From Elusimicrobiota bacterium (GTDB lineage: Bacteria; Elusimicrobiota; Elusimicrobia; F11): a stretch of 64,000 nucleotides of DNA. The stretch is from the NCBI GenBank assembly GCA_046153645.1, contig JBJXGI010000053.1:15512-79511 (forward strand). Reading direction: 5' to 3'. A model generated the notes under the pieces. The model worked only from the letters and a program-made list of their open reading frames with translations. It was not told the DNA's origin and made no database searches. Positions 16,615-29,380 of the stretch are shown piece by piece (the stretch's first letter is position 1; every line of letters begins with the position of its first letter). Made by a program: the position numbers and the translations under genes.

Positions 16615-18245
16615 GATTTTGGAACTCCTACAACTTCGAACAAATGAAATCTTTCCCAAGGACTATTCGAAAACGTAAAAGGAAGCGCGCCCCACACAGA
16701 GGCATAAAATCCAGCCGATCCTTTCATATCCATTACTTTAATTGGAAAACGCGTATCATAACTGAAGACTTTCAATCGTTTAAGCGTTAATCCCTTTTTA
16801 AAAAAAGAAATGAAAGGCATCGTTATTTCTTTTACCAAAACCTGATCCCCCACTTGAAATGATGTGTTTTCGAAACAAGGAGACCATCCTTCTTTTTTTA
16901 AATAACTAACAGTAAAAGAATCCCCCGTATAAAATGAGCGCGGGCCTGGAACGATCCCCTCAGTTTTTAAATCATGAATCAAACTCCTAGACGTATTGGC
17001 TTGCTTATAATCAGCATAGGCTAAACTGCCAGTCACCACAAAAGATATGATGACCAAAACAAGAAAACATCTTCTACGCGCGTATAAATCAAAATTGATT
17101 TCAATCATCCGAACCACTAAAAAAACCACTGCCGGAACAACCAACACATAATATCTTCCAGCGACCCATCCCATCACAACAAGCATCATAAGAATAAAAA
17201 GGACCAACCAAACAATTAAAAATAAATCCTTCGGAAAAATAAAATTCTTTCGTTCCATCCACAACCTTATCGAGAAAAGAAGACTGGACACCGCCCATAT
17301 TGAAAGCAGAAAAGATTGAACATAATTAAACCCACCCAAAGAGCTAGAGGAAAAAACCGCACACAAAAAAACAATCAAAGACCACATTAATATTTTTTTA
17401 CCAGAGAAAAACCGCCATACGACAAGCGGCACCAAAGTAACACCAGAAAGAAATACAAAAAAAACAAGAATTTTAACCCATCCATAGACTTGCACCATTC
17501 GTCCAGATGCCGCGAATATATGAGGAGCTCCGTATAATTTATAAGTCCAATAATTGTAAGCCGTTAAAATACCCAGACCCAATATCCATGAGACAAAAAG
17601 AATCGATGGTCTTCGAATATTTTTATATTTAAATAAAAACCAAACAAAAGTGAGCGGAAAGATAAGAGTCGCCGGATATTTAGAAAGTGTTGCCAACCCC
17701 ATAAAAAATCCGCTGACCAAAGAGAGCCACAAAGAATCTTTTTCAATACTGAGGATAAAAAAACTTAATGCTCCTAAAAAAAAGAAGCCGGCTGTTGAAT
17801 CAATTAACAAACTATAAGAAGAAAGCCAAAAGGCTGGAGTTAACAAACAAAGAACCGTAGCCCATACTGGAAACGAAGTGAGCCTACGCGCCAACATGAG
17901 AATAAACAACGCGGAAAAACAGTTCAAAAAAACACATCCCAATCGTAAAAACCATTCTTTTTCACCTCCCAATTTGAGCAGAAAAGCAAGGTAGTAATGA
18001 TGTGCCAAGGGATTGACCATTCGAACAAAACCATTTTCTTCCCACCCTCTTGTTTGTGGGCCAGCATCATCAGCTGTAAAGTGATAGGGAAGAGAGGGGT
18101 GATCTTTTAACCAGGTAGCAATTTCGACAAAATAACTATCATCGACAAAATATGCTCTATTTAAAAAAGGAGCCGCCAAAAAAAAAGGCAGTAGAAAAAT
18201 AAAAAAATATACAAATTGTTTTTTTCTAGGTTCTGAAATGGACAT
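16611..18245 (-). CDS. polytopic GT-C-type glycosyltransferase (ArnT/PMT-like)
   Basis: 544 aa with more than 10 hydrophobic segments, an acidic first-loop motif (RAYFVDDSYF) and a soluble C-terminal domain. The family call is from architecture only. Confidence 0.5.
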   Translation of the reverse strand: MSISEPRKKQFVYFFIFLLPFFLAAPFLNRAYFVDDSYFVEIATWLKDHPSLPYHFTADDAGPQTRGWEENGFVRMVNPLAHHYYLAFLLKLGGEKEWFLRLGCVFLNCFSALFILMLARRLTSFPVWATVLCLLTPAFWLSSYSLLIDSTAGFFFLGALSFFILSIEKDSLWLSLVSGFFMGLATLSKYPATLIFPLTFVWFLFKYKNIRRPSILFVSWILGLGILTAYNYWTYKLYGAPHIFAASGRMVQVYGWVKILVFFVFLSGVTLVPLVVWRFFSGKKILMWSLIVFLCAVFSSSSLGGFNYVQSFLLSIWAVSSLLFSIRLWMERKNFIFPKDLFLIVWLVLFILMMLVVMGWVAGRYYVLVVPAVVFLVVRMIEINFDLYARRRCFLVLVIISFVVTGSLAYADYKQANTSRSLIHDLKTEGIVPGPRSFYTGDSFTVSYLKKEGWSPCFENTSFQVGDQVLVKEITMPFISFFKKGLTLKRLKVFSYDTRFPIKVMDMKGSAGFYASVWGALPFTFSNSPWERFHLFEVVGVPKS

Positions 18246-19029
18246 GAAATTTATGACCCGCTTTTAATTGAAAAAAATTTGCCGCATGCCCATTCCTCAA
18301 GGCGATCTCAAGAAATCCACTTGAACCAACAACGATTAAAGGTTTGCCTTCTTCAACACTGGAATAAGTTTGAGAAACTCCACGAATGGTATTTTTATCA
18401 GCTATTTCAAACCATATTTTTGAGTTCTCAGAAAAATCTTTTAACTCAGAAGCTTTTAAATTTGTAACCAAATTACCGAAATGATCAACCAATAAAACTT
18501 CTGCAACCCATCGGGACCCTGCTTTTAAAACAGGCGGAAAAGGAATCGTCTCCCATTGTGATATAGAACGTCCCAACGTATTGATAGCCTCACCTTTTAA
18601 GAGTTTTGCCACAAAAGGAGCCATAATATCTCGTCCATGGAAAGTGGCGCTGATCGGATAAGAAGAAATCATATCTGGTATTAATTCCATGACAAATGTA
18701 GGGCGATCATTTTTAAACACCCAACTTAAAAGACCATTGTCTGGCCCTACAAAAACCCTGTTGGCCGCCTCCGCGCAAATTATTTTTCGATTGGATCCAA
18801 CCCCAGGGTCAACAACGGCTAAGAAAATAGATTTTTCAGGAAAAAAACCATACGTCTCCATTAATTGAAAAGCCCCAAAACGAACGTCCTGAGGAGGAAC
18901 ATCATGTGAGATATCAACAATCTGGACATCAGGATCAGCGGAGAGAAGAATTCCTTTCATCGTTCCAATAAAATGATCCGCTAATCCAAAATCACTTAAC
19001 AAACAAACAATTGGAGTGGAAGACCCCAC
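18226..19029 (-). CDS. S-adenosyl-L-methionine hydroxide adenosyltransferase (DUF62 / SAM hydrolase) family
   Basis: 267 aa with LLSDFGLADHFIGTMKGIL, VDISHDVPPQDV, AVVDPGVGSNR and ATFHGRDIMAP motifs. Confidence 0.85.
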   Translation of the reverse strand: MGSSTPIVCLLSDFGLADHFIGTMKGILLSADPDVQIVDISHDVPPQDVRFGAFQLMETYGFFPEKSIFLAVVDPGVGSNRKIICAEAANRVFVGPDNGLLSWVFKNDRPTFVMELIPDMISSYPISATFHGRDIMAPFVAKLLKGEAINTLGRSISQWETIPFPPVLKAGSRWVAEVLLVDHFGNLVTNLKASELKDFSENSKIWFEIADKNTIRGVSQTYSSVEEGKPLIVVGSSGFLEIALRNGHAANFFQLKAGHKFHVHFRT

Positions 19030-19030
19030 C

Positions 19031-19726
19031 TTATCTCATCCCCCAAATCTTATGCTGCTGCGTCATGACAAAGACTTTTTCTAAATATTGTTTTGAAATA
19101 GAAAACGCACGCGCAATAAATTCAGCTGTTGCAGGTTCAATATCTGGAAATTGGGCGGTGGCTGGCTGTAAAATAAGAAGTGGAGAAACAGGCGTTTTTT
19201 TAATGATATTCACGGCCTGTTCTACTTCTTGCAAAAGTGATTTTTTCTCTAAAACCACCTTTACAAAAGCTTTTTCACCGGCCACTTTTAAAAATTTCTC
19301 ATGCTGCTCCCAGTGATCCTCATGGGTCGCACTGGGTAATTTCATATCCATAGAAATAACATTCACATAGGAGTAAATAGCTTCAAGCGCATCGACATGG
19401 ATTCCCGCCGTTTCTAAATAAATCTTAAATCCCTGCTCTTTCAATAAAGGCAGCAATTCTTTAAGGAAAACAATATGCGTCAACGGCTCGCCTCCGGTCA
19501 TGCTCACCGTTTTTATCCCTGTTTTAACGGAGACTCTCTTAATCTCAAGAAAAACTTCTTCAACAGACATTCGCGAATGTCCAGAGACGGTTAAACTTTC
19601 GGGAGTATCACAATAATTGCATCTTAAAGGACAACCAGCCAACCGGGTAAAAATTTGGCGCTCTCCCGTAAATGGACCCTCTCCTTGAATCGAAGCATAT
19701 ATTTCACTGACAAAAGTTGTCGTCAT
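19031..19726 (-). CDS. queE: 7-carboxy-7-deazaguanine synthase (radical SAM)
   Basis: 231 aa with IYASIQGEGPFTGERQIFTRLAGCPLRCNYCDT. It is adjacent to queC. Confidence 0.9.
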   Translation of the reverse strand: MTTTFVSEIYASIQGEGPFTGERQIFTRLAGCPLRCNYCDTPESLTVSGHSRMSVEEVFLEIKRVSVKTGIKTVSMTGGEPLTHIVFLKELLPLLKEQGFKIYLETAGIHVDALEAIYSYVNVISMDMKLPSATHEDHWEQHEKFLKVAGEKAFVKVVLEKKSLLQEVEQAVNIIKKTPVSPLLILQPATAQFPDIEPATAEFIARAFSISKQYLEKVFVMTQQHKIWGMR

Positions 19727-20394
19727 AAAAGACCCGCTTCCTGCAATCCTTTATTTCTAAACAAACAAGAATCACAAAGACCACAAGGTTTTTTGTCACC
19801 TTTATAACAAGACCAAGTTTTTTCAATTGGCATTTTCAACTTAACACCCAGACGAATAATATCCGCCTTTGATAATTTAAGCAGTGGCGCTACAATTTTA
19901 ATTTTGATCTTTTTCTCTGTCCCTAAACGAGAACCCAAATTTGCTACCGATTCAAAAGATTGAATATATTTGGGTCGACAATCAGGGTATCCCGAATAAT
20001 CCACAGCATTAGCACCAATAACGATTTTAGATGCATTGATTTGATCCGCCCAAGAAAGAGCAAAACTCAAAAAAATCGTATTTCTAGCAGGGACATAAGT
20101 CGACGGCAAATGTGTCGTTGTTATTTTTTTAAGCGTCTGATGATGAGGAAGCTTTTCTTGAGCATTTGTCAAAGAAGACCCACTCCAAGGAAGAGCAAAA
20201 CGAACAACATGCAACGGAACATTGGTAAGCCGAGCTAATTTTTTGGCACTTTTTAATTCTTTGTTATGTCTTTGACCATAGTCGAAACTGAGCGCGTGAC
20301 AATCCCATCCCCGTTTTTTAGCCCACCACAAACAAACAGCACTATCAAGACCACCCGACAACAAAACAACAGCTTTGTTTTTTCTAATACTCAT
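19723..20394 (-). CDS. queC: 7-cyano-7-deazaguanine synthase
   Basis: 223 aa with a VVLLSGGLDSAV PP-loop and a C-terminal Zn cysteine motif CGLCDSC. Confidence 0.9.
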   Translation of the reverse strand: MSIRKNKAVVLLSGGLDSAVCLWWAKKRGWDCHALSFDYGQRHNKELKSAKKLARLTNVPLHVVRFALPWSGSSLTNAQEKLPHHQTLKKITTTHLPSTYVPARNTIFLSFALSWADQINASKIVIGANAVDYSGYPDCRPKYIQSFESVANLGSRLGTEKKIKIKIVAPLLKLSKADIIRLGVKLKMPIEKTWSCYKGDKKPCGLCDSCLFRNKGLQEAGLL

Positions 20395-20398
20395 AAAA

Positions 20399-21205
20399 TT
20401 AAAGATTTTCGAGAGAAAACCGGCGTGTGGAAATCGTATCGGTATTTAAAAATTGTTTGGCTAATTTTGAGAACCCCTTTGGATTATCGCTAACAAAATA
20501 CTCGATTTTTCCTTTTTTAGAATTGGAATTTAAAATACGCATTTTTTCTAACTTCCGACGAACTTCTTTGGCTGTTTCTTCGGCAGAATCAATTAACTTT
20601 ATGCGGGGGCCTGATATTTTTTGCAACATCGGTTTCAACAATGGATAATGCGTACAGCCTAAAACCAGCGTATCAATTTTATGTTTTAATATTTCTTTAA
20701 GATAAGTTTTTCCAATATTTTCTGTTATTGAATCGGTGAGCCACCCTTCTTCAACGAGAGGAACAAACAAAGGACAAGCCTGTTCCCATACATGCGCTTT
20801 CGGTGAATAGTGTCGAATATTTTTTAGATAGGCATGACTACCAACTGTAGCGGAAGTTCCAATAACACCGATTTTCAAATGTGCGCTTGCTAAAGCGGCA
20901 GCCCGAGCCCCGGGCTCGATAACCCCTAAAACGGGGATGGGAAGGTTTTTTAATGATTTAAGCGCCAAAGAACTCGCCGTATTACACGCGACAACAATTA
21001 ACTTAACTCGCTTTTGCATAAGAAAAAACGCAATTTGCAAAGCGTAACGACGAATGGTTTCCGGCGATTTGTTTCCATAAGGCACTCGAGCCGTATCACC
21101 GACATAAATCATATCTTCAGAAGGCAAAAGTTTGGCAATTTCTTTTATTACTGTTAAACCACCCAATCCAGAATCAAATACGCCAATAGGCAACTGGGAA
21201 CTCAT
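20399..21205 (-). CDS. murI: glutamate racemase
   Basis: 268 aa with VFDSGLGGLTV, VVACNTAS and LGCTHYPLL. Confidence 0.9.
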   Translation of the reverse strand: MSSQLPIGVFDSGLGGLTVIKEIAKLLPSEDMIYVGDTARVPYGNKSPETIRRYALQIAFFLMQKRVKLIVVACNTASSLALKSLKNLPIPVLGVIEPGARAAALASAHLKIGVIGTSATVGSHAYLKNIRHYSPKAHVWEQACPLFVPLVEEGWLTDSITENIGKTYLKEILKHKIDTLVLGCTHYPLLKPMLQKISGPRIKLIDSAEETAKEVRRKLEKMRILNSNSKKGKIEYFVSDNPKGFSKLAKQFLNTDTISTRRFSLENL

Positions 21206-22581
21206 TTTTTCTCCACACGTTTAAGATAGGCCATAATACCAGCCCGAATTCCATTCGCCAACTGATTTCGATAACGAGAAGATCTCAATTTAAGCTCAGA
21301 AAGAGGGTGCGATAAATATTCTAACTCAATCAGGACGCTTGGCATTTGCGCCCCTCTTAACACAAAAAAATCAGCCTCTTTCACGTCTGCCATTTCAACT
21401 TTAGACACATTCTTAATATTTCTAACGATAATTGACGCTATTTCAGATGATTCGTTTAAAAAGTTATTTATTGCCATGGAAGAAAGTAACCAATCCAGTT
21501 TATTTGACCCCTTTGCTTGCCCATGTGTTTCTAAATCAACAACAGAATTCTCTAAACGAGCCACAGATTGAGCGGCTTTGTCTGTTGCGTCTGTGGATAA
21601 AAAATAAACTTCAAAACCAGAATTCTTAGGTGACAAAGAAGAATTACAATGAATAGAAATAAACAAGTCCGCATGCGCTTGATTTGCTGCCCGGGTTCGT
21701 TCCCCTAACGGGATAAACTTGTCATTTCTTCGAGTCATCATCACCTTGATGCCATCTTCTTTTTTAAATAGTTTTTCCAATAGTTTCGCCATTTCCAGAT
21801 TAATATCTTTTTCTAATGTTCCTCTCGTACCGATGGCGCCAGAGTCTAACCCTCCATGTCCGGCATCAATGACAATAATCCGTTCTCGTTTCGAAGGCTG
21901 ATTGCGAATTCGCTCTTGAGCTGACTTTAATGGAACAACCTTGCGCGGCATTTCTTCTTTGGGTTTAGTTTTTACATTTTCTATGGGGGGCACAGGTTTT
22001 GGTGTTATAACCGGAGGCATAACAGGAGAAGTTGGAATTTTATTAATAACCTTCACTTCTTTTTTAACGACCCCTTCTTTTTTTACATACTCATTTTTCT
22101 TGTTCACAGGAGGCACTTCGCGCTTCATAACAGGAATGGGTTTTGTTTCGACATTCTTCGTGGGAACAATTCTATAGGGGACGTCGATCACGAGAACCCT
22201 TCGACCATTTTCATAAAACACATCGGTTGAGAGGGCACGTTCCCCAGTATAAATATCCATATCAATGGAATGTTTTTTTTGACGGATACGAATTTCTTTA
22301 ATGACTCGGTCTCCCTCTAAGATTTGAGATCCATTCGAGGTGGTATTTAAAAAACGCAACCACACACGTTTATCACTTTTCTCTAAAAGGGCATGGTCTA
22401 AATTATCAATCAAAGGAACTCTGATTTGGTAACGATCGGGCAATTTTTCAACTTTGGGTGTTTTCAAGAAAAATGGGGATAAAGGAAAACGAGTGGCAGG
22501 CAATTCAGAAAAAGCCAGTTGAGAGTGAGTAAACATCAACGCAACAATCAAAAACAGACGGGTCAAAAAACGCGAATTCAT
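21202..22581 (-). CDS. amiC: N-acetylmuramoyl-L-alanine amidase (Amidase_3) with N-terminal AMIN-like region and Pro/Lys-rich linker
   Basis: IVIDAGHGGLDSGAIG, LFISIHCNS and GFEVYFLS. The track start is TTG at 22638. I prefer ATG at 22581 (MNSRFLTRLFLIVALMFTHSQLAFS, a clean signal peptide) because it avoids overlap with the HNH gene. Confidence 0.8.
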   Translation of the reverse strand: MNSRFLTRLFLIVALMFTHSQLAFSELPATRFPLSPFFLKTPKVEKLPDRYQIRVPLIDNLDHALLEKSDKRVWLRFLNTTSNGSQILEGDRVIKEIRIRQKKHSIDMDIYTGERALSTDVFYENGRRVLVIDVPYRIVPTKNVETKPIPVMKREVPPVNKKNEYVKKEGVVKKEVKVINKIPTSPVMPPVITPKPVPPIENVKTKPKEEMPRKVVPLKSAQERIRNQPSKRERIIVIDAGHGGLDSGAIGTRGTLEKDINLEMAKLLEKLFKKEDGIKVMMTRRNDKFIPLGERTRAANQAHADLFISIHCNSSLSPKNSGFEVYFLSTDATDKAAQSVARLENSVVDLETHGQAKGSNKLDWLLSSMAINNFLNESSEIASIIVRNIKNVSKVEMADVKEADFFVLRGAQMPSVLIELEYLSHPLSELKLRSSRYRNQLANGIRAGIMAYLKRVEKK

Positions 22582-22597
22582 GAATGCAGTTTTAATC

Positions 22598-23197
22598 TTA
22601 CTGATGCTCGAGTTCAGTATTCCAGTAAACATTATCAATAAATCTTTGCCATGAAGCCTTTACTTTGAGACCGGGTCTAAAACATAAAGCGGCAGCGCCA
22701 GTCCATTCTGGCTTGGTTGCCTGAACCAGTAATTTCATTCCGGCTTCATCTGGCAAACGACTTCCTTTCTTTAAATTACAAGGAATACACGTGGTGACAA
22801 CATTTGACCAATCTGTTTTCCCTCCACGAGAACGAGGAATAACGTGTTCCAAGTTTAAATCAATGGTTGTAAATTTATGGCCACAATAGGCGCACTTATA
22901 ATTGTAATGCTCATAAATATTTCGCCTTGTGAATTTCACTTCAGATTTAGGTAACCCATCAAAATGGCGAAGAGTGACAACATCAGGAATGGCAATTTTA
23001 AATGAAGGGGTTTGGATAAATCCGGTTTTATCATCTGCCATTAAAGAGGAAATTTCACGCCAGTCTTCGAAGGTATAAGTTCGATATTCCTCATCAACAA
23101 CTCGCGCATGATCTAAATAAATTAGACTTAACGCGCGACGCCAAGAAATGATTTGAACCGCGAAAAAGCTGCGGTTAAGAACCAACACATCACTCAT
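22598..23197 (-). CDS. HNH endonuclease-family protein
   Basis: 199 aa with CAYCGHKF...LEHVIPRSRGGKTDWSNVVTTCIPCNLKKG, an HNH core with CxxC pairs. It is the last gene of the riboswitch-controlled cluster. Confidence 0.8.
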   Translation of the reverse strand: MSDVLVLNRSFFAVQIISWRRALSLIYLDHARVVDEEYRTYTFEDWREISSLMADDKTGFIQTPSFKIAIPDVVTLRHFDGLPKSEVKFTRRNIYEHYNYKCAYCGHKFTTIDLNLEHVIPRSRGGKTDWSNVVTTCIPCNLKKGSRLPDEAGMKLLVQATKPEWTGAAALCFRPGLKVKASWQRFIDNVYWNTELEHQ

Positions 23198-23221
23198 AAT
23201 ATCCCTTACAAGGGAACGGGG

Positions 23222-23461
23222 TCAGCTCTCGAGGGTGTCTCTTGTTACTGGCTCAACCTTTAACCCTTGGTCTTTTAACCATTGAATGGCTTGAGAAAGT
23301 ACTTTTTCTTCTCCCTCAAGTTCCAAAACGATTTCACCGATTTTTTCTGTAATTCGCGCGCGTCTTAAATTAAAAACCACGTCGTATTTTTCAGTCATTT
23401 TATGAATGACCGGTTCTTTAATCAGATTTTGCGGAAATGTGAGTTGAAGTGCTTGTTTCAT
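23222..23461 (-). CDS. stand-alone NIL-domain protein
   Basis: 79 aa with PVIHKMTEKYDVVFNLRRARITEKIGEIVLELEGEE, which resembles the NIL domain found at the C-terminus of MetN. Confidence 0.6.
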   Translation of the reverse strand: MKQALQLTFPQNLIKEPVIHKMTEKYDVVFNLRRARITEKIGEIVLELEGEEKVLSQAIQWLKDQGLKVEPVTRDTLES

Positions 23462-23504
23462 AGATCAAGTATGCTTCTAAAACGAGCTGGTTTCAATGCG
23501 AGAA

Positions 23505-23783
23505 TTAACAACCGCCGGCAATCGCGGGGATAATGGAAACTTCAGCCCCTTCTTCAACCTTCGTATTGGGTCCATCTTTGAATCGAATATCTTCGCCATT
23601 AACAAAAATATTCACAAACCGACGAATTTGACCTGACTCATCACAAATTCTTTCTTTGAGCCCCGGATAACTCTTTTCGAGACCGGCCAATAATTCTTGG
23701 ACTGTTTTGCCTTGAATTTCAACAACGGCTTGGTCCTGGGTTAATTTTCTTAAAGGGGCTGGAATTCGTACTTTAGCGGGCAT
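23505..23783 (-). CDS. MoaD/ThiS-family sulfur-carrier protein ending in GG-Cys
   Basis: 92 aa of beta-grasp carrier length. The C-terminal sequence is EVSIIPAIAGGC. Confidence 0.8.
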   Translation of the reverse strand: MPAKVRIPAPLRKLTQDQAVVEIQGKTVQELLAGLEKSYPGLKERICDESGQIRRFVNIFVNGEDIRFKDGPNTKVEEGAEVSIIPAIAGGC

Positions 23784-23803
23784 GGGATTCTCCTTGTTTC
23801 AAA

Positions 23804-25066
23804 TTAAACAGCGGCAACTGGCGAAACTTTATCTTGCAGCCGATGATACAGTTCTTTAAAGTTTTCTAATCTTGCTGGAATGATATGAGGCTGACTTACT
23901 TTTCCCTGAATGGCATCAAGTGTTTTTAAACCATTACCGGTCACATAAACCACAGTCACATCATCAGATTTGATGCTACCAGTTTGAACCAAGTGTTTCA
24001 AGGAAGCAACGGTGACTCCCCCTGCGGTTTCCGTGAAAATTCCCTGCGTACTGGCTAAGAGTTTAATACCTTCAACAATTTCATCGTCAGTAACACTGAC
24101 TCCTTGCCCACCAGTCTTCATAACCAACTTAGCTGCATAAGGACCATCAGCGGGATTACCAATGGCTAAGGATTTGGCAATGGTATTGGGGCGAACAGGT
24201 TTTATTAAGTCAGTTCGATCTTGAATGGCCGTTGAAATAGGACCACAACCAGACGCCTGTGAACAATGCAATTTCGTTTCATGATGAGGAATTAACTCTA
24301 AATCTTGAAATTCCTGTAACCCTTTATAAATTTTCGTTAAAAGAGAACCTGAAGCGGCGGGAACAACGACATGATCCGGGGCTTTCCACCCTAATTGTTC
24401 AGCAACTTCAAAACCCAATGTTTTCGATCCTTCTGCGTAATAGGGCCGAATATTAACGTTAACAAAGGCCCACTTGAAGGCATCAGCCACTTCCGAACAA
24501 AGACGGTTTACCTCGTCATAAGTGCCATCAATTCCAATAATAATAGGATCATAAACTCCCGCACCCAATACTTTGCCTTCTTCCAAATTAGCAGGAATAA
24601 AAACAAATCTTTTTAGATTGGCAACAGCCCCATAAGCAGAAACAGCACCAGCCAAATTACCAGTTGAAGCACAGGCGACTGTTGAAAAACCCAATTCCCG
24701 GGCGCGAGTGAGCGCCACACTAACCACTCGATCTTTAAATGAAAAAGTGGGGTTTACGGAGTCGTTTTTAATGTAGAGGTTTTTGAGCCCTAAAAGAGCA
24801 CCAAGATTTTTGGCATGGAGAAGAGGGGTATAACCTTCTTGCAAAGTAATAACATCTCTTGTCTCAACAGGAAGAAGATCCCAATATCGCCACAAGGAAC
24901 GCGGCCCTGCTTCAATTGATTTTCGTGATACATTTTTTTTAATCAGGTCGTAATTATAATCGACCTCTAAAGGACCAAAACATAACTCACAAACATGAAT
25001 TGCTTTAGCGGGATATAATTCACCGCACTCTTTGCATTTAAGACCTTTAATTTTGGAATCTGCCAT
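23804..25066 (-). CDS. threonine synthase-family PLP enzyme (possibly a sulfur-carrier-dependent homocysteine synthase)
   Basis: 420 aa with an N-terminal Zn ribbon (CKECGELY...CELC) and the PLP-lysine motif PTFSFKDRVVSVAL. It is the first gene after a SAM-I riboswitch. Confidence 0.8.
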   Translation of the reverse strand: MADSKIKGLKCKECGELYPAKAIHVCELCFGPLEVDYNYDLIKKNVSRKSIEAGPRSLWRYWDLLPVETRDVITLQEGYTPLLHAKNLGALLGLKNLYIKNDSVNPTFSFKDRVVSVALTRARELGFSTVACASTGNLAGAVSAYGAVANLKRFVFIPANLEEGKVLGAGVYDPIIIGIDGTYDEVNRLCSEVADAFKWAFVNVNIRPYYAEGSKTLGFEVAEQLGWKAPDHVVVPAASGSLLTKIYKGLQEFQDLELIPHHETKLHCSQASGCGPISTAIQDRTDLIKPVRPNTIAKSLAIGNPADGPYAAKLVMKTGGQGVSVTDDEIVEGIKLLASTQGIFTETAGGVTVASLKHLVQTGSIKSDDVTVVYVTGNGLKTLDAIQGKVSQPHIIPARLENFKELYHRLQDKVSPVAAV

Positions 25067-25081
25067 AAATCATTCTTCCTG

Positions 25082-25118
25082 AAATAAAAAACCCTAGAGG
25101 ACATTTCACCCTAGGGTT
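25082..25118 (-). terminator. intrinsic terminator forming the expression platform of the SAM riboswitch
   Basis: The minus-strand RNA reads AACCCUAG-GGUGAAAUGUCCU-CUAGGGUU followed by UUUUUAUUUC. Confidence 0.75.
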
Positions 25119-25127
25119 CAATAAATC

Positions 25128-25236
25128 CTCTTATCGGTCCCGAAAATTCGGGTACAGGCTTTGGCACGCATTTGAGTTTTTCAAACCGTTGCCGTGGTTT
25201 CATCGGGCCATGCCCCTCCGCCACTCTTGATAAGGG
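25128..25236 (-). promoter_or_regulatory. SAM-I (S-box) riboswitch aptamer
   Basis: The minus-strand RNA reads CCUUAUCAAGAGUGGCGGAGGGGCAUGGCCCGAUGAAACCACGGCAACGGUUUGAAAAACUCAAAUGCGUGCCAAAGCCUGUACCCGAAUUUUCGGGACCGAUAAGAG. It contains the conserved P1 pairing (CUUAUC/GAUAAG), AGAG-GGCGGAGGG, GGCCCGAUGAAACC, GCAAC and GUGCCAA blocks. Confidence 0.9.
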
Positions 25237-25288
25237 TGCTACTAAAAGACACCAAATCTTACTAAATTTTCCTAAAAAAATTCAGCGA

Positions 25289-27145
25289 TTATTCAACTGT
25301 AACACTCTTGGCCAAATTACGAGGCTGGTCAACGTCACATCCCAAATAACCAGCAATATAATAGGCAAGAATTTGAAGAGGAACCACATTGACCAAGGGG
25401 CTTAAATCCTCCGGCACATCAGGAACGTAAATAACATCTGACGCTTTACTATCAATTAACTTATCTCCCTTGGTAACAATAGAAATGACTTCTGCTCCAC
25501 GACTTTTGGCCTCTTCAATATTGGAAACCATTTTGTCATAAACACTAGATTTAGTGGCAATGGCAACCACCGGAAGATTTTCGTCAATCAAAGCAATGGG
25601 GCCATGTTTCATTTCACCCGCAGGATATCCTTCCGCATGAATATAAGAAATCTCTTTTAGTTTAAGCGCCCCTTCAAGAGCAATCGGATAGTTCAAATGG
25701 CGGCCTAAATACAAAAAATCTTTTCGTCTAAAATATTTTTTGGCGATTTTCGCAACGGCTTCTTCACATTCCAAGGTCTCTGTAATCCACTGCGACAAGT
25801 GAGTGAGATTTTTTTCTTTTTCTTTGATCTCACTGGCAGGCATCACTTTTTTAAGATTCGCAAAATAAAGTGCCAACAAATGAAGAGCAACCAATTGCCC
25901 CATAAACGCTTTTGTTGAAGCCACACCAATCTCAGGGCCACAATGTGTCAAAAGAAAACCATGCGCGTCACGGGTTATTGTTGACCCAACTACATTAGCA
26001 ATCCCGACAACATGGGCTCCTTTCTTTTTAGCCAAGCGAACGGCGGCCAAAGTATCGGCTGTTTCACCAGACTGAGAAATAGCCACCACGAGCGTATTCG
26101 GTTCAATAACAGGATCTCGGTACCTAAACTCAGAAGCAATTTCAACCTGACAAGGCACGCCGGAATATTTTTCGATTAAATAAGAACCAATGAGTGCCGA
26201 GTGCCATGAGGTACCACAAGCCACAAATCGAACTCGGCTAATCTTATTGGCTGCCTCATCCGTTAAGCCAAGTTCCGTCAAATTGATTTTCCCGGTTTGA
26301 AGGTCCATGTGTCCCATCAAAGTATTTTCAACAATGCGGGGTTGCTCATGGATTTCTTTCATCATGAAATGTTTATAACCGGCTTTTTCAGCTTGCACCG
26401 GGTCCCAAGCAATTTTAACCGCAGACCGTTGGATGGGCTTTCCAGAGGAGTCAAAATATAAAATTCCCTCTTTCGCCATCACAACAACGTCACCATCTTC
26501 AAGAAAAATGACATCGCGGGTGTAAGATAAAATTGCAGGAACATCGGAGGCTAAAAAGTTTTCGCCATTTCCCAAACCAATAATAAGAGGGCAATCTCTT
26601 CTGGCGCCAATAATAACATCCGGGAGGTCAGAACAAACAATACCGAGGGCAAAGGTCCCTTTAATTTCTTTTAAAGAAGTCAAAACAACACTCAAAAAAT
26701 CTTCTTTACTTATTTTTCCACCTTTATGTTTGGAGAGATGAAACCCAATGAGCTGCGCCACCGCTTCTGTATCTGTTTGAGATTTAAAAACGATTCCTTC
26801 TTTAGATAATTTCTCTTTGAGCTGAAGATAATTTTCAATGATCCCGTTATGAACAACAATAACTCTCTCCGATTGATCAGCATGAGGATGAGCATTCACT
26901 TCAGTGGGGGCTCCATGAGTGGCCCAACGAGTGTGTCCAATTCCCAAATGGCCACTTAATGGTTGTTTTTGAAGCAAGGCATCTAACTCAGATAATTTTC
27001 CTACAGAACGCCGTCTTTCAAAAGCGCCATTTGAAAAAACAGCGATTCCAGCAGAATCATAACCTCTGTACTCAAGCTTTCTCAAACCCTCTAATAAAAC
27101 AGGCGTAGCCTCTGATTTACCAACATAACCTAAAATTCCACACAT
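25289..27145 (-). CDS. glmS: glutamine--fructose-6-phosphate aminotransferase
   Basis: 618 aa with an MCGILGYVG N-terminus, two SIS domains and a C-terminal KSVTVE. Confidence 0.95.
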   Translation of the reverse strand: MCGILGYVGKSEATPVLLEGLRKLEYRGYDSAGIAVFSNGAFERRRSVGKLSELDALLQKQPLSGHLGIGHTRWATHGAPTEVNAHPHADQSERVIVVHNGIIENYLQLKEKLSKEGIVFKSQTDTEAVAQLIGFHLSKHKGGKISKEDFLSVVLTSLKEIKGTFALGIVCSDLPDVIIGARRDCPLIIGLGNGENFLASDVPAILSYTRDVIFLEDGDVVVMAKEGILYFDSSGKPIQRSAVKIAWDPVQAEKAGYKHFMMKEIHEQPRIVENTLMGHMDLQTGKINLTELGLTDEAANKISRVRFVACGTSWHSALIGSYLIEKYSGVPCQVEIASEFRYRDPVIEPNTLVVAISQSGETADTLAAVRLAKKKGAHVVGIANVVGSTITRDAHGFLLTHCGPEIGVASTKAFMGQLVALHLLALYFANLKKVMPASEIKEKEKNLTHLSQWITETLECEEAVAKIAKKYFRRKDFLYLGRHLNYPIALEGALKLKEISYIHAEGYPAGEMKHGPIALIDENLPVVAIATKSSVYDKMVSNIEEAKSRGAEVISIVTKGDKLIDSKASDVIYVPDVPEDLSPLVNVVPLQILAYYIAGYLGCDVDQPRNLAKSVTVE

Positions 27146-27146
27146 A

Positions 27147-27866
27147 TTATTTCATCCTCTTTTTCATTTCAAAAACCGCTTGTTGCATTCCAACCACAAC
27201 AGATCTAGCTACAATTGAAAAACCAATATTTAACTCATTAAACGAAAAACTTTTTACCAAAGCAGAAACATTATCGTAGTTAATCCCATGACCCGCATTC
27301 ACCAAAAGCCCCAGGCGCTGAGCTAAAAAACCAGTTGTTCTAATACGCGCTAATTCAAAAGCGATATTTTTCTGAGATCCTTTTTCAAAAACAGCCGCGT
27401 ATTTTCCCGTATGTATTTCAATGGCATCAGCCATAAGAACTGAAGCCAACTGAATAGATTCTATCTCGGGCTCAACAAACAAAGAAACTTTAATTTTTTT
27501 CTGCTGCAACTTTCGGATAACCAAATTCAATCGAGCCTGATATTTGGAAAGGTTTAACCCCCCTTCTGTTGTTAATTCTTCTCTATGCTCGGGGACTAAA
27601 CAAACCCAATCAGGACGCACTTTGAGTGCAAAATCTACAATTGCGGGCGCCAATGACATTTCCAAATTAAACGGGACCTTCAAATGTTTTGAAAAAAAGA
27701 TGACATCACAATCTTGAATATGACGGCGATCTTCCCTTAAGTGCGCGGTTATGCCCGTCGCCCCGCCCTTCACTGCTTCTTTTGCTAAAAAAACGGGATC
27801 CGGAAATGATTCGTGACGTGCCTGGCGAAGGGTCGCAATATGGTCAATATTCACACCTAACTTCAT
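27147..27866 (-). CDS. pdxJ: pyridoxine 5'-phosphate synthase
   Basis: 239 aa with MKLGVNIDHIATLRQAR, HLREDRRHI and NAGHGINY. Confidence 0.9.
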   Translation of the reverse strand: MKLGVNIDHIATLRQARHESFPDPVFLAKEAVKGGATGITAHLREDRRHIQDCDVIFFSKHLKVPFNLEMSLAPAIVDFALKVRPDWVCLVPEHREELTTEGGLNLSKYQARLNLVIRKLQQKKIKVSLFVEPEIESIQLASVLMADAIEIHTGKYAAVFEKGSQKNIAFELARIRTTGFLAQRLGLLVNAGHGINYDNVSALVKSFSFNELNIGFSIVARSVVVGMQQAVFEMKKRMK

Positions 27867-29380
27867 GCGTAAACTTTCATAGCCTCTTCAATTTTTTCCG
27901 TTATTTCAGAACCGTAACGATGCAATTGCATCTTATCAGGCCCCTCAATCATGATTCTCAGTAAGGGCTCCGTTCCTGAATAACGCACAAGAACTCTTCC
28001 CTGAGAACCCAGTTCACTCTCAATTTTTTTAATACATGAATGCGCCGCGGGTAGTTCATTAAGAGGAACACGTTTTTTAACCTTTAAATTCATTAACACT
28101 TGGGGATATTTCTTAATAAGTTCAGAAACATGAGAAAAAGGAAGTTTTGTTTTCTTGAAATATTTTAGTACTTGAAGGGCTGTCAAAAGCCCATCTCCCG
28201 TGGGAAGGTACTGCCCCATAATAATGTGGCCCGATTGTTCTCCCCCTAATATCGCTCCGGATTTTTGCATGGCCATAGAAACAAATCGATCACCGACAGA
28301 AACTTCTTCGCAAGAAATTTTTTGAGCGGCCAATGCCTTTTTAAGGCCTAAATTAGCCATCACTGTAATTACAACTTTATTCTTAACAAGAGCTTTTGAT
28401 TCCTTCAAATGCCCAGCGAGAAAAGCAATAATATGATCGCCATCCAACGAATGCCCTTTTTCATCAACGAAAATAACTCGATCGGCATCTCCATCAAATG
28501 CAATTCCTAAGTGACAATGTTCTTTACGAACCAATATTTCTAAATCAGAGGTATGCTGAGAACCGCATCCAACATTAATATTTCTTCCATTGGGCCTAGC
28601 ATGAATGACATGCAAATCTGCTCCTAAACGTCCCAAGATACGCGGGGCTAACAAAAAACTAGCTCCATTCGAACAATCCAAAGCAATTTTCAAACCATTC
28701 AATTTGATTCCTTCTAAGGTATCAATAAGAAAGGATTCATACACTTCTCTTAATTGTTCCACTTTTATCAACTTATCTTTCGAACTTTTAAGTGGAGGAG
28801 TCGGTTTTTTATGCCATTGAAAAAGAAGAGATTCAACCGTTTCTTCCCAAACATCAGGCCACTTTCGAGCTGACGCATTAAAAAATTTGATTCCATTAAA
28901 TTCAGGCGGGTTATGGGAAGCAGAAATCACAATACCAGAATGGAATTTCTGAGAGCGAACCAAGTGCGCAGCTCCAGGGGTACTTATTACACCAACAGAA
29001 AAAACATCAATTCCTTTTTGCTGTAACCCTTTTGCGATCATTTTTTCAATCCACTGACCTGACAAACGAGTATCCCGTGCAATAAGAATCTTAGGCCGAC
29101 CTTTCTTGACATGGTCCCTTAACACTTCTCCTGCAGCAAGACCAATATAATAAACGTCTTTTTTACTTAATGGCGATTTACCCGCAATTCCGCGAATACC
29201 ATCAGTTCCAAATAATTTTGGGGCTTTATTAGACAAGAGAATGAAATTCCTTTTGATTGAGTTAACATCAGATATGCATCGATAAGGGATTATACCAGAA
29301 AAACCAAATTCCTCCGAGGAGAATTGATAAAAAGAGTCTTTAAACACCAGGGCAGACGTTAAGGCAAATGAGCCAGCCAT
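27863..29380 (-). CDS. glmM: phosphoglucosamine mutase
   Basis: LFGTDGIRG, the active-site sequence ISASHNPPEFNGIKF, and FDGDADRV. The track start at 29380 adds about 48 non-conserved residues. A TTG at 29236 (MSNKAPKLFGTDGIRG) with AAAGGAA upstream is the more likely start. Confidence 0.9.
   Translation of the reverse strand: MAGSFALTSALVFKDSFYQFSSEEFGFSGIIPYRCISDVNSIKRNFILLSNKAPKLFGTDGIRGIAGKSPLSKKDVYYIGLAAGEVLRDHVKKGRPKILIARDTRLSGQWIEKMIAKGLQQKGIDVFSVGVISTPGAAHLVRSQKFHSGIVISASHNPPEFNGIKFFNASARKWPDVWEETVESLLFQWHKKPTPPLKSSKDKLIKVEQLREVYESFLIDTLEGIKLNGLKIALDCSNGASFLLAPRILGRLGADLHVIHARPNGRNINVGCGSQHTSDLEILVRKEHCHLGIAFDGDADRVIFVDEKGHSLDGDHIIAFLAGHLKESKALVKNKVVITVMANLGLKKALAAQKISCEEVSVGDRFVSMAMQKSGAILGGEQSGHIIMGQYLPTGDGLLTALQVLKYFKKTKLPFSHVSELIKKYPQVLMNLKVKKRVPLNELPAAHSCIKKIESELGSQGRVLVRYSGTEPLLRIMIEGPDKMQLHRYGSEITEKIEEAMKVYA

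Follow-up and report, generated by a model that had tools for sequence, protein, structure and literature searches.

Why a gene of the threonine synthase family should be controlled by S-adenosylmethionine (SAM) is the question raised by a short operon of an uncultured Elusimicrobiota bacterium. The operon lies in a 64,000-nucleotide (nt) stretch of contig JBJXGI010000053.1 (assembly GCA_046153645.1), hereafter the window, to which feature coordinates refer. It consists of a SAM-I (S-box) riboswitch followed by genes for a ThrC-family pyridoxal phosphate (PLP) enzyme, a small sulfur carrier and a stand-alone NIL-domain protein, with a gene for an HNH nuclease-domain protein next in line. An earlier note on this DNA had proposed that these genes serve homocysteine synthesis from O-phosphohomoserine, with a protein thiocarboxylate as sulfur donor, and the riboswitch, the paralogy of the enzyme and the genome inventory all agree with SAM-controlled, carrier-dependent synthesis of the MetM/MetO type. 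The operon is thus likely to be a SAM-repressed metM-metO unit of this type and the sole detectable homocysteine route of the organism, with the NIL protein as an accessory and the HNH gene unrelated to it.

The riboswitch and the threonine synthase paralogue

The covariance model RF00162 matched the aptamer over its complete length (model positions 1-108; cmscan, Rfam) with a score far above the gathering threshold (77.2 vs. 44.4 bits, E 2e-16). This was the sole Rfam match within the window, and the element is single in the whole 2.63-Mb genome (105 contigs, estimated 99.7% complete). The P1 helix CUUAUC/GAUAAG and the conserved sequence blocks named in the earlier note are visible in the RF00162 alignment, and the terminator that it had placed behind the aptamer was likewise recovered, as a hairpin with arms GAACCCUAGGG and CCUCUAGGGUUU whose last pairs extend into the U tract. 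Its stability (−16.7 kcal/mol, z −3.64) was equalled by none of 200 shuffled sequences. Directly 3' of the hairpin stands UUUUUUAUUU, ending about 17 nt ahead of the start codon of the metM-like gene, and no methionine-rich leader open reading frame (ORF) was found in the 62 nt between the aptamer and this codon. The minimum-free-energy fold of the whole leader contained P1 to P4 together with the terminator, which corresponds to the OFF state: abundant SAM would close P1, allow the terminator to form and switch the operon off. A candidate antiterminator helix reached just −3.5 kcal/mol and did not reappear when the folds were constrained, the terminator prevailing in every fold. About 45 nt upstream of the aptamer, a promoter-like site lies partly in the 3' end of glmS, partly in the spacer; such sites were no commoner in the region than in shuffled sequences, so that this one is weak evidence, and the operon may also be read through from glmS.

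Behind the riboswitch, four co-directional minus-strand ORFs follow each other with gaps of 20, 43 and 24 nt. They stand in the order ThrC-like, MoaD-like, NIL and HNH where the earlier note had put them, and their families are backed by profile matches (Table 1).

Table 1. Features of the operon and its leader (window coordinates), unlinked genes of the same genome (contigs C92 and C100) and fused genes at related loci (L037, L042, L050); aa, amino acids.
Feature	Position	Strand	Basis
Promoter-like site	25288..25315	−	TTGGCC, 16 nt, AATAAT; consensus scan, 9/12 matches
SAM-I (S-box) riboswitch aptamer	25128..25236	−	RF00162, 77.2 bits
Intrinsic terminator, expression platform	25083..25119	−	13-pair hairpin 25089-25119 and U tract to 25083
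metM-like gene, ThrC-family PLP enzyme, 420 aa	23804..25066	−	PALP 224.6 bits; TIGR00260 278.7 bits
metO-like gene, CysO-type ThiS/MoaD carrier, 92 aa	23505..23783	−	PF02597 67.2 bits; NCBIfam SAMP1 72.2 bits
Stand-alone NIL-domain protein, 79 aa, no Cys	23222..23461	−	PF09383 60.9 bits (cut-off 24)
HNH nuclease-domain protein, 199 aa, neighbour only	22598..23197	−	HNH_5 64.8 bits
MoeZ-like E1, 386 aa	C100:45030-46190		ThiF 281 bits; Rhodanese 61.5 bits
Mec-like JAMM protein, 163 aa	C92:11302-11793		Prok-JAB 67 bits
CysM-like, Mec-like and sulfite-reductase-like genes	C92:9482-12793		
MetO-NIL fusion ORFs	L037:8294-8812; L042:6334-6906; L050:8167-8682		Carrier domain ending AIAGG, linker and NIL

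At first sight the 420-aa protein could be taken for a second genuine threonine synthase (or synthase/deaminase), its neighbouring carrier serving another enzyme such as CysM. It passes the curated cut-off of TIGR00260 (278.7 vs. 167.1 bits), and a PDB search retrieved as solved relatives only ordinary threonine synthases (123-196 bits) and no MetM structure. In the same direction point the threonine-related in vitro activities of a cyanobacterial member of the clade (PMC12172450) and the presence in the genome of a CysM-like gene without a carrier gene of its own. This explanation is nonetheless highly unlikely, given that a canonical thrC is also present, on contig C85, scoring 320 bits on the thrC model against 279 for the window gene. 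With 36.6% identity between the two proteins, the window gene is, as judged from sequence, a paralogue and not the housekeeping gene for threonine synthase. A separate canonical thrC likewise accompanied the MetM-like gene in 14 of 15 other genomes, and in a maximum-likelihood tree 15 MetM-like and 15 canonical ThrC proteins split with 100/100 support on long stems, the window protein falling outside the canonical clade. SAM control would moreover suit methionine rather than threonine synthesis, the linkage to a carrier extends across phyla (62 of 67 loci), and the genome encodes MetH and yet no other route to homocysteine.

The deep separation from ThrC is accompanied by changes in the active site, where the housekeeping motifs are not kept. 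SFKDRG is replaced by SFKDRV, STGNTS by STGNLA, the N-SxNxYR loop by NVNxRPYY and PVGNAGN by PAASGSL, the altered motifs including those of the phosphate loop and the PLP loop. An N-terminal, zinc-ribbon-like C-x2-C...C-x2-C motif (C11, C14, C26 and C29) and an invariant Cys274 mark the MetM-like clade and are absent from canonical ThrC; the four-cysteine motif also occurs in the homologue of Nonomuraea gerenzanensis. Relatives 53-85% identical to the window protein were found in more than ten phyla, among them Elusimicrobiota, Nitrospirota, Cyanobacteria (60-61% identity), Planctomycetota, Nitrospinota, Actinomycetota, Chloroflexota, Zetaproteobacteria and Aquificota. The product of the metM-like gene is therefore predicted to be an O-phosphohomoserine-dependent homocysteine synthase and, as the earlier note had suspected, not a true threonine synthase, in agreement with the separate canonical thrC, the distinct clade and the lack of a conventional homocysteine route in the genome. 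That it still scores above the TIGR00260 cut-off fits the misannotation noted in the GapMind paper (PMC13759103).

Genome inventory and the predicted route to homocysteine

None of the conventional entries into homocysteine was detected in the genome. Searches found no genuine Cys_Met_Meta_PP enzyme (PF01053; MetB/C/Y/Z), the best match being partial at 31.8 bits, and neither MetX nor MetA (the latter sought by phmmer and tblastn with E. coli MetA). MetE was not found, nor was COG1900/HcyBio (PF01837), for which control searches did give matches. What the genome does encode is a homoserine kinase, ThrB (TIGR00191, 263.4 bits vs. cut-off 168), the canonical ThrC, a full-length MetH (273 bits in a 1177-aa frame), a single ThiF-family protein with a rhodanese domain and a single Prok-JAB protein of the JAMM type. 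The metM-metO operon therefore appears to be the only detectable homocysteine route of the organism, and both outcomes that would have spoken against the original proposal were absent: the riboswitch scored above threshold, and the genome holds a second, canonical thrC with no conventional methionine pathway elsewhere. The earlier statement that no E1-like activating enzyme or JAMM protease lies nearby was right as to linkage, the two genes being unlinked to the operon; they are not missing, and are encoded on contigs C100 and C92.

The carrier itself terminates in AIAGG followed by one residue, a cysteine, beyond the Gly-Gly, so that trimming by a JAMM enzyme is expected. Among the homologues of the carrier, GG is terminal in 24, and about 37 have 1-6 residues past it. 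The closest solved relative is CysO of Mycobacterium tuberculosis (3dwg_C, E 9e-18). Of the three ThiS-family genes in the genome only that of the window is of the CysO type; the other two, MoaD and ThiS, stand in their own clusters and both end in GG. The Mec-like JAMM gene abuts genes for a CysM-like cysteine synthase and a sulfite-reductase-like protein, with no carrier gene there, and since the genome has a single CysO-type carrier, that of the operon is the only possible partner for this cluster. One SAM-controlled carrier may consequently supply the synthesis of cysteine as well as of homocysteine, in which case cysteine synthesis would be under SAM control too.

From the observed sequence features, genome inventory, phylogeny and synteny we infer the following route, together with the response to SAM, the JAMM trimming and the role of the NIL protein. 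ThrB would make O-phosphohomoserine, from which the MetM-like PLP enzyme would eliminate phosphate and add sulfur from the C-terminal thiocarboxylate of the MetO-like carrier, yielding homocysteine for methylation to methionine by MetH. The extra residue of the carrier is presumably cut off by the Mec-like JAMM peptidase, whose gene lies on another contig; the MoeZ-like ThiF-rhodanese enzyme, from a third contig, would then adenylate the trimmed carrier and load it with sulfur.

Some points weigh against this route. Orthology to MetM of Streptomyces albulus appears to run through intermediates, namely the Nonomuraea protein (54% identity) and cyanobacterial homologues; no named Streptomyces MetM was among the 120 matches listed for the actinomycete homologue used as a query, and those listed all came from uncultured Actinomycetota or Acidimicrobiales and were labelled "threonine synthase". 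A cyanobacterial member of the clade was reported to act in vitro as a threonine synthase and threonine deaminase, while formation of homocysteine was not clearly seen (PMC12172450). The ON state of the riboswitch is assumed, the candidate antiterminator helix being weak in the folding models, and in a 105-contig assembly the absence of other homocysteine routes is strong rather than absolute evidence.

The operon compares most closely with the thiocarboxylate route from O-phosphohomoserine to homocysteine of S. albulus, which, as outlined in the GapMind account, comprises MetO as carrier, Mec as hydrolase, MoeZ as ligase and MetM (GapMind 2026, PMC13759103, citing Hasebe et al. 2024, Appl Environ Microbiol 90:e01247-24). 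According to a second, likewise indirect account, S. albulus metM has a SAM riboswitch upstream (PMC12172450, citing Hasebe 2024), and the Microcystis homologue, 51.6% identical to MetM, adjoins a metO-like gene (PMC12172450). As far as these accounts describe the S. albulus system, the operon shares with it a ThrC-homologous enzyme beside a small GG-type carrier, the upstream SAM riboswitch, a residue past the carrier GG that calls for a JAMM hydrolase, and a MoeZ-type E1 and homoserine kinase in the genome. It differs in its Elusimicrobiota host, in the unlinked moeZ and mec, which lie on other contigs, and in the stand-alone NIL protein, which is not among the MetM/MetO steps in GapMind (PMC13759103). 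The idea that the four-gene combination under an S-box was new to description is in this respect to be divided: the SAM riboswitch with metM and metO is already published for S. albulus, while the NIL partner is undescribed in the searchable literature. By its sequence features the operon is an Elusimicrobiota member of the published MetM/MetO system, of which the NIL protein is the sole undescribed part.

Other carrier-dependent systems are more distant. With the CysO/CysM/Mec/MoeZ system of M. tuberculosis the genome shares a CysO-like carrier, a CysM-like gene beside a Mec-like JAMM gene and a ThiF-rhodanese E1, but the enzyme of the operon belongs to the ThrC rather than the CysK/CysM family, the carrier gene stands with metM and not with cysM, and SAM control points to methionine instead of cysteine. 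Wolinella succinogenes reportedly uses an HcyS/HcyD/HcyF/MetY route with O-acetylhomoserine and MetY (PF01053), a finding ascribed to Krishnamoorthy and Begley in 2011. There, too, the sulfur of homocysteine comes from a protein thiocarboxylate on a JAMM-matured carrier with E1-like activation; in contrast, our genome contains no PF01053 enzyme, MetX or MetA. In methanogens and Desulfovibrio, COG1900 (MA1821) and a NIL-ferredoxin (MA1822) form a homocysteine route with aspartate semialdehyde as substrate (Rauch et al. 2014; PMC5764234). It likewise ties a NIL domain genetically to homocysteine synthesis, but COG1900 is absent here, the NIL protein has neither ferredoxin domain nor cysteine, and the substrate would be O-phosphohomoserine.

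Distribution of the system and its NIL partner

Conservation of the gene cluster was followed in 80 loci of species-representative genomes from more than ten phyla, 67 of them with enough flanking sequence. In 62 of these 67 the carrier lay at most 3.5 kilobases (kb) from the MetM-like gene. Across the 80 loci a MoeZ-like gene was present in 31, a CysM-like gene in 28, a sulfite-reductase-like gene in 7 and a Mec-like gene in 3 to 5, according to where the E-value limit was set. Of 30 loci scanned, 12 had a SAM-I element ahead of the cluster; they belong to Chloroflexota, Actinomycetota, Zetaproteobacteria, Elusimicrobiota, Armatimonadota, Omnitrophota and one deltaproteobacterium; among the same 30, none was upstream of the cyanobacterial, Nitrospirota, Nitrospinota or Planctomycetota clusters. 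In N. gerenzanensis, a cultured actinomycete represented in the plasmid collection, a SAM-I element (68.7 bits) is followed by the MetM-like gene and by a carrier ending in GG.

Five loci, one from Elusimicrobiota and four from Chloroflexota (L021, L056, L060, L062 and L064), had no detected carrier in the vicinity of the MetM-like gene; in three, its place is taken by a ThiF-like gene 1.5-2 kb downstream, and L060 keeps its SAM-I riboswitch. In five Nitrospirota loci (L022, L023, L024, L026 and L029) the cluster reads CysM-like, ThiF-like, MetM, MetO, NIL and ThiF-like, with no riboswitch, the flanking ThiF-type genes encoding about 270 aa each, without an extension of rhodanese length.

The NIL-domain ORF of the operon is the only one found in the genome by profile search. 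Homologues occurred in 29 of the 67 loci, mostly adjoining the carrier, and in several (L053, L099 and L049) NIL came after CysM instead of MetM. The latter arrangement bears on the possibility that homocysteine, or some other thiol amino acid, is produced by the MetM-like enzyme directly from free sulfide, carrier and NIL mainly serving CysM-like cysteine synthesis and the operon merely co-regulating the two. Such a scheme would also give the CysM-like/Mec-like cluster of contig C92 its only available carrier and would accord with the Microcystis study, in which the MetM reaction was mimicked with Na2S (PMC12172450). It is, however, distinctly unlikely, as carrier and MetM are neighbours much more consistently (62 of 67 loci) than carrier and CysM (28 of 80), and GapMind describes MetM as dependent on the MetO thiocarboxylate (PMC13759103). 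Thiocarboxylate transfer from the carrier to the MetM-like enzyme thus remains the preferred reading.

Several features suggest what the NIL protein may do within the thiocarboxylate system. No cysteine is conserved among its orthologues, and an N-I-R motif is common to them. The AlphaFold model (predicted local distance difference test, pLDDT, 92) has a beta-alpha-beta-beta-alpha-beta fold, and the top 11 matches of a PDB fold search were all MetN C2/NIL domains (template modelling, TM, scores 0.76-0.85; root-mean-square deviation 1.0-2.3 Å). Asn31 aligns with N295 of E. coli MetN, in the regulatory C2 domain of this subunit of the methionine importer MetNI, and 22 of 24 orthologues have an asparagine there; the inhibitory L-methionine is held in MetN by a hydrogen bond to N295 and no longer binds after an N295A replacement (PMC6233128). 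The MetN C2-like fold and the conserved Asn support ligand sensing in connection with the carrier system, and the protein is most likely a conserved accessory of this system and a sensor, at the protein level, of a methionine-type or homocysteine-type ligand. While the MetN domain is part of an ATP-binding cassette (ABC) ATPase, here it is a free 79-aa protein, and in some phyla a C-terminal extension of the carrier. Such carrier-NIL fusions were found in three loci, two from Planctomycetia and one from Desulfuromonadales (Table 1), with NIL right behind AIAGG and a short linker, so that a cut after GG would free both carrier and NIL.

In the searchable literature a NIL partner of thiocarboxylate or sulfur-carrier systems is not described, the COG1900/NIL-ferredoxin work being all that surfaced. 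A broader proposal, possible but doubtful, is that many MetM/MetO-type and CysO/CysM-type systems have in NIL a genuine third component, a free MetN-C2-like sensor of methionine or homocysteine whose feedback would act at the protein level on the carrier, on its E1 or on the PLP enzyme, with fused forms releasing carrier and sensor upon JAMM cleavage, and that the SAM-controlled carrier of our organism also gates the unlinked CysM-like cysteine synthesis. If this were true, the NIL sensor would place a fast level of allosteric control below the SAM riboswitch.

The HNH neighbour and the meaning of the operon

The last gene of the row had been counted as an operon member in the earlier note, a view that the comparison of loci does not sustain. 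For all four genes to form one functional unit, the HNH protein would have to take part in the sulfur-carrier pathway or help to regulate it; the 24-nt gap to NIL, the common strand, the lack of a detected terminator between the two and the preservation of the order metM-metO-NIL-HNH in relatives with 70-83% MetM identity speak in its favour. In these same relatives, however, the entire block glmM-pdxJ-glmS-metM-metO-NIL-HNH-amiC-murI-queC-queE is collinear, so that the HNH linkage appears inherited along with unrelated housekeeping genes. Outside this close clade an HNH homologue was found in 0 of the 80 related loci, and in other Elusimicrobiota its orthologues (65-70% identity) adjoin ACT-domain and deformylase (def) genes or FeoB and TonB-receptor genes. 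Only the nuclease core (residues ~85-155) resembles anything known, matching HNH domains of the IscB, Cas9 or PtuB type; in NCBIfam, PADLOC and the PDB the first ~85 and last ~45 residues matched nothing, and no system-level assignment was obtained. A four-gene functional unit is accordingly extremely unlikely, and we judge the HNH gene, from these comparisons, to be an unrelated neighbour held by local synteny and not part of the homocysteine system. An origin as a mobile insertion was also considered and rejected, the gene being single-copy in the genome and 65-82% identical across Elusimicrobiota; in its distribution it behaves like a lineage-wide housekeeping nuclease and not like a mobile or defence gene.

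As to the wider surroundings, window positions 18226-29380 hold glmM, pdxJ, glmS, the met operon, the HNH gene, an amiC-like gene, murI, queC, queE and another ORF, all on the minus strand and with tiny gaps or overlaps between them. A scan of positions 21000-25500 flagged, besides the terminator of the riboswitch, one terminator-like site, which lies within the HNH gene.

The core of the system being already published, the operon extends known biology and overturns nothing. It would close an apparent gap in the methionine pathway of an uncultured Elusimicrobiota lineage, and it indicates that the genes of this clade labelled "threonine synthase" most likely encode homocysteine synthases, the wrong label skewing predictions of auxotrophy in at least ten phyla. 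In the NIL protein, which recurs as a partner and is in some loci joined to the carrier, there is a concrete, testable pointer to a regulatory or accessory part of protein-thiocarboxylate sulfur transfer not described before.

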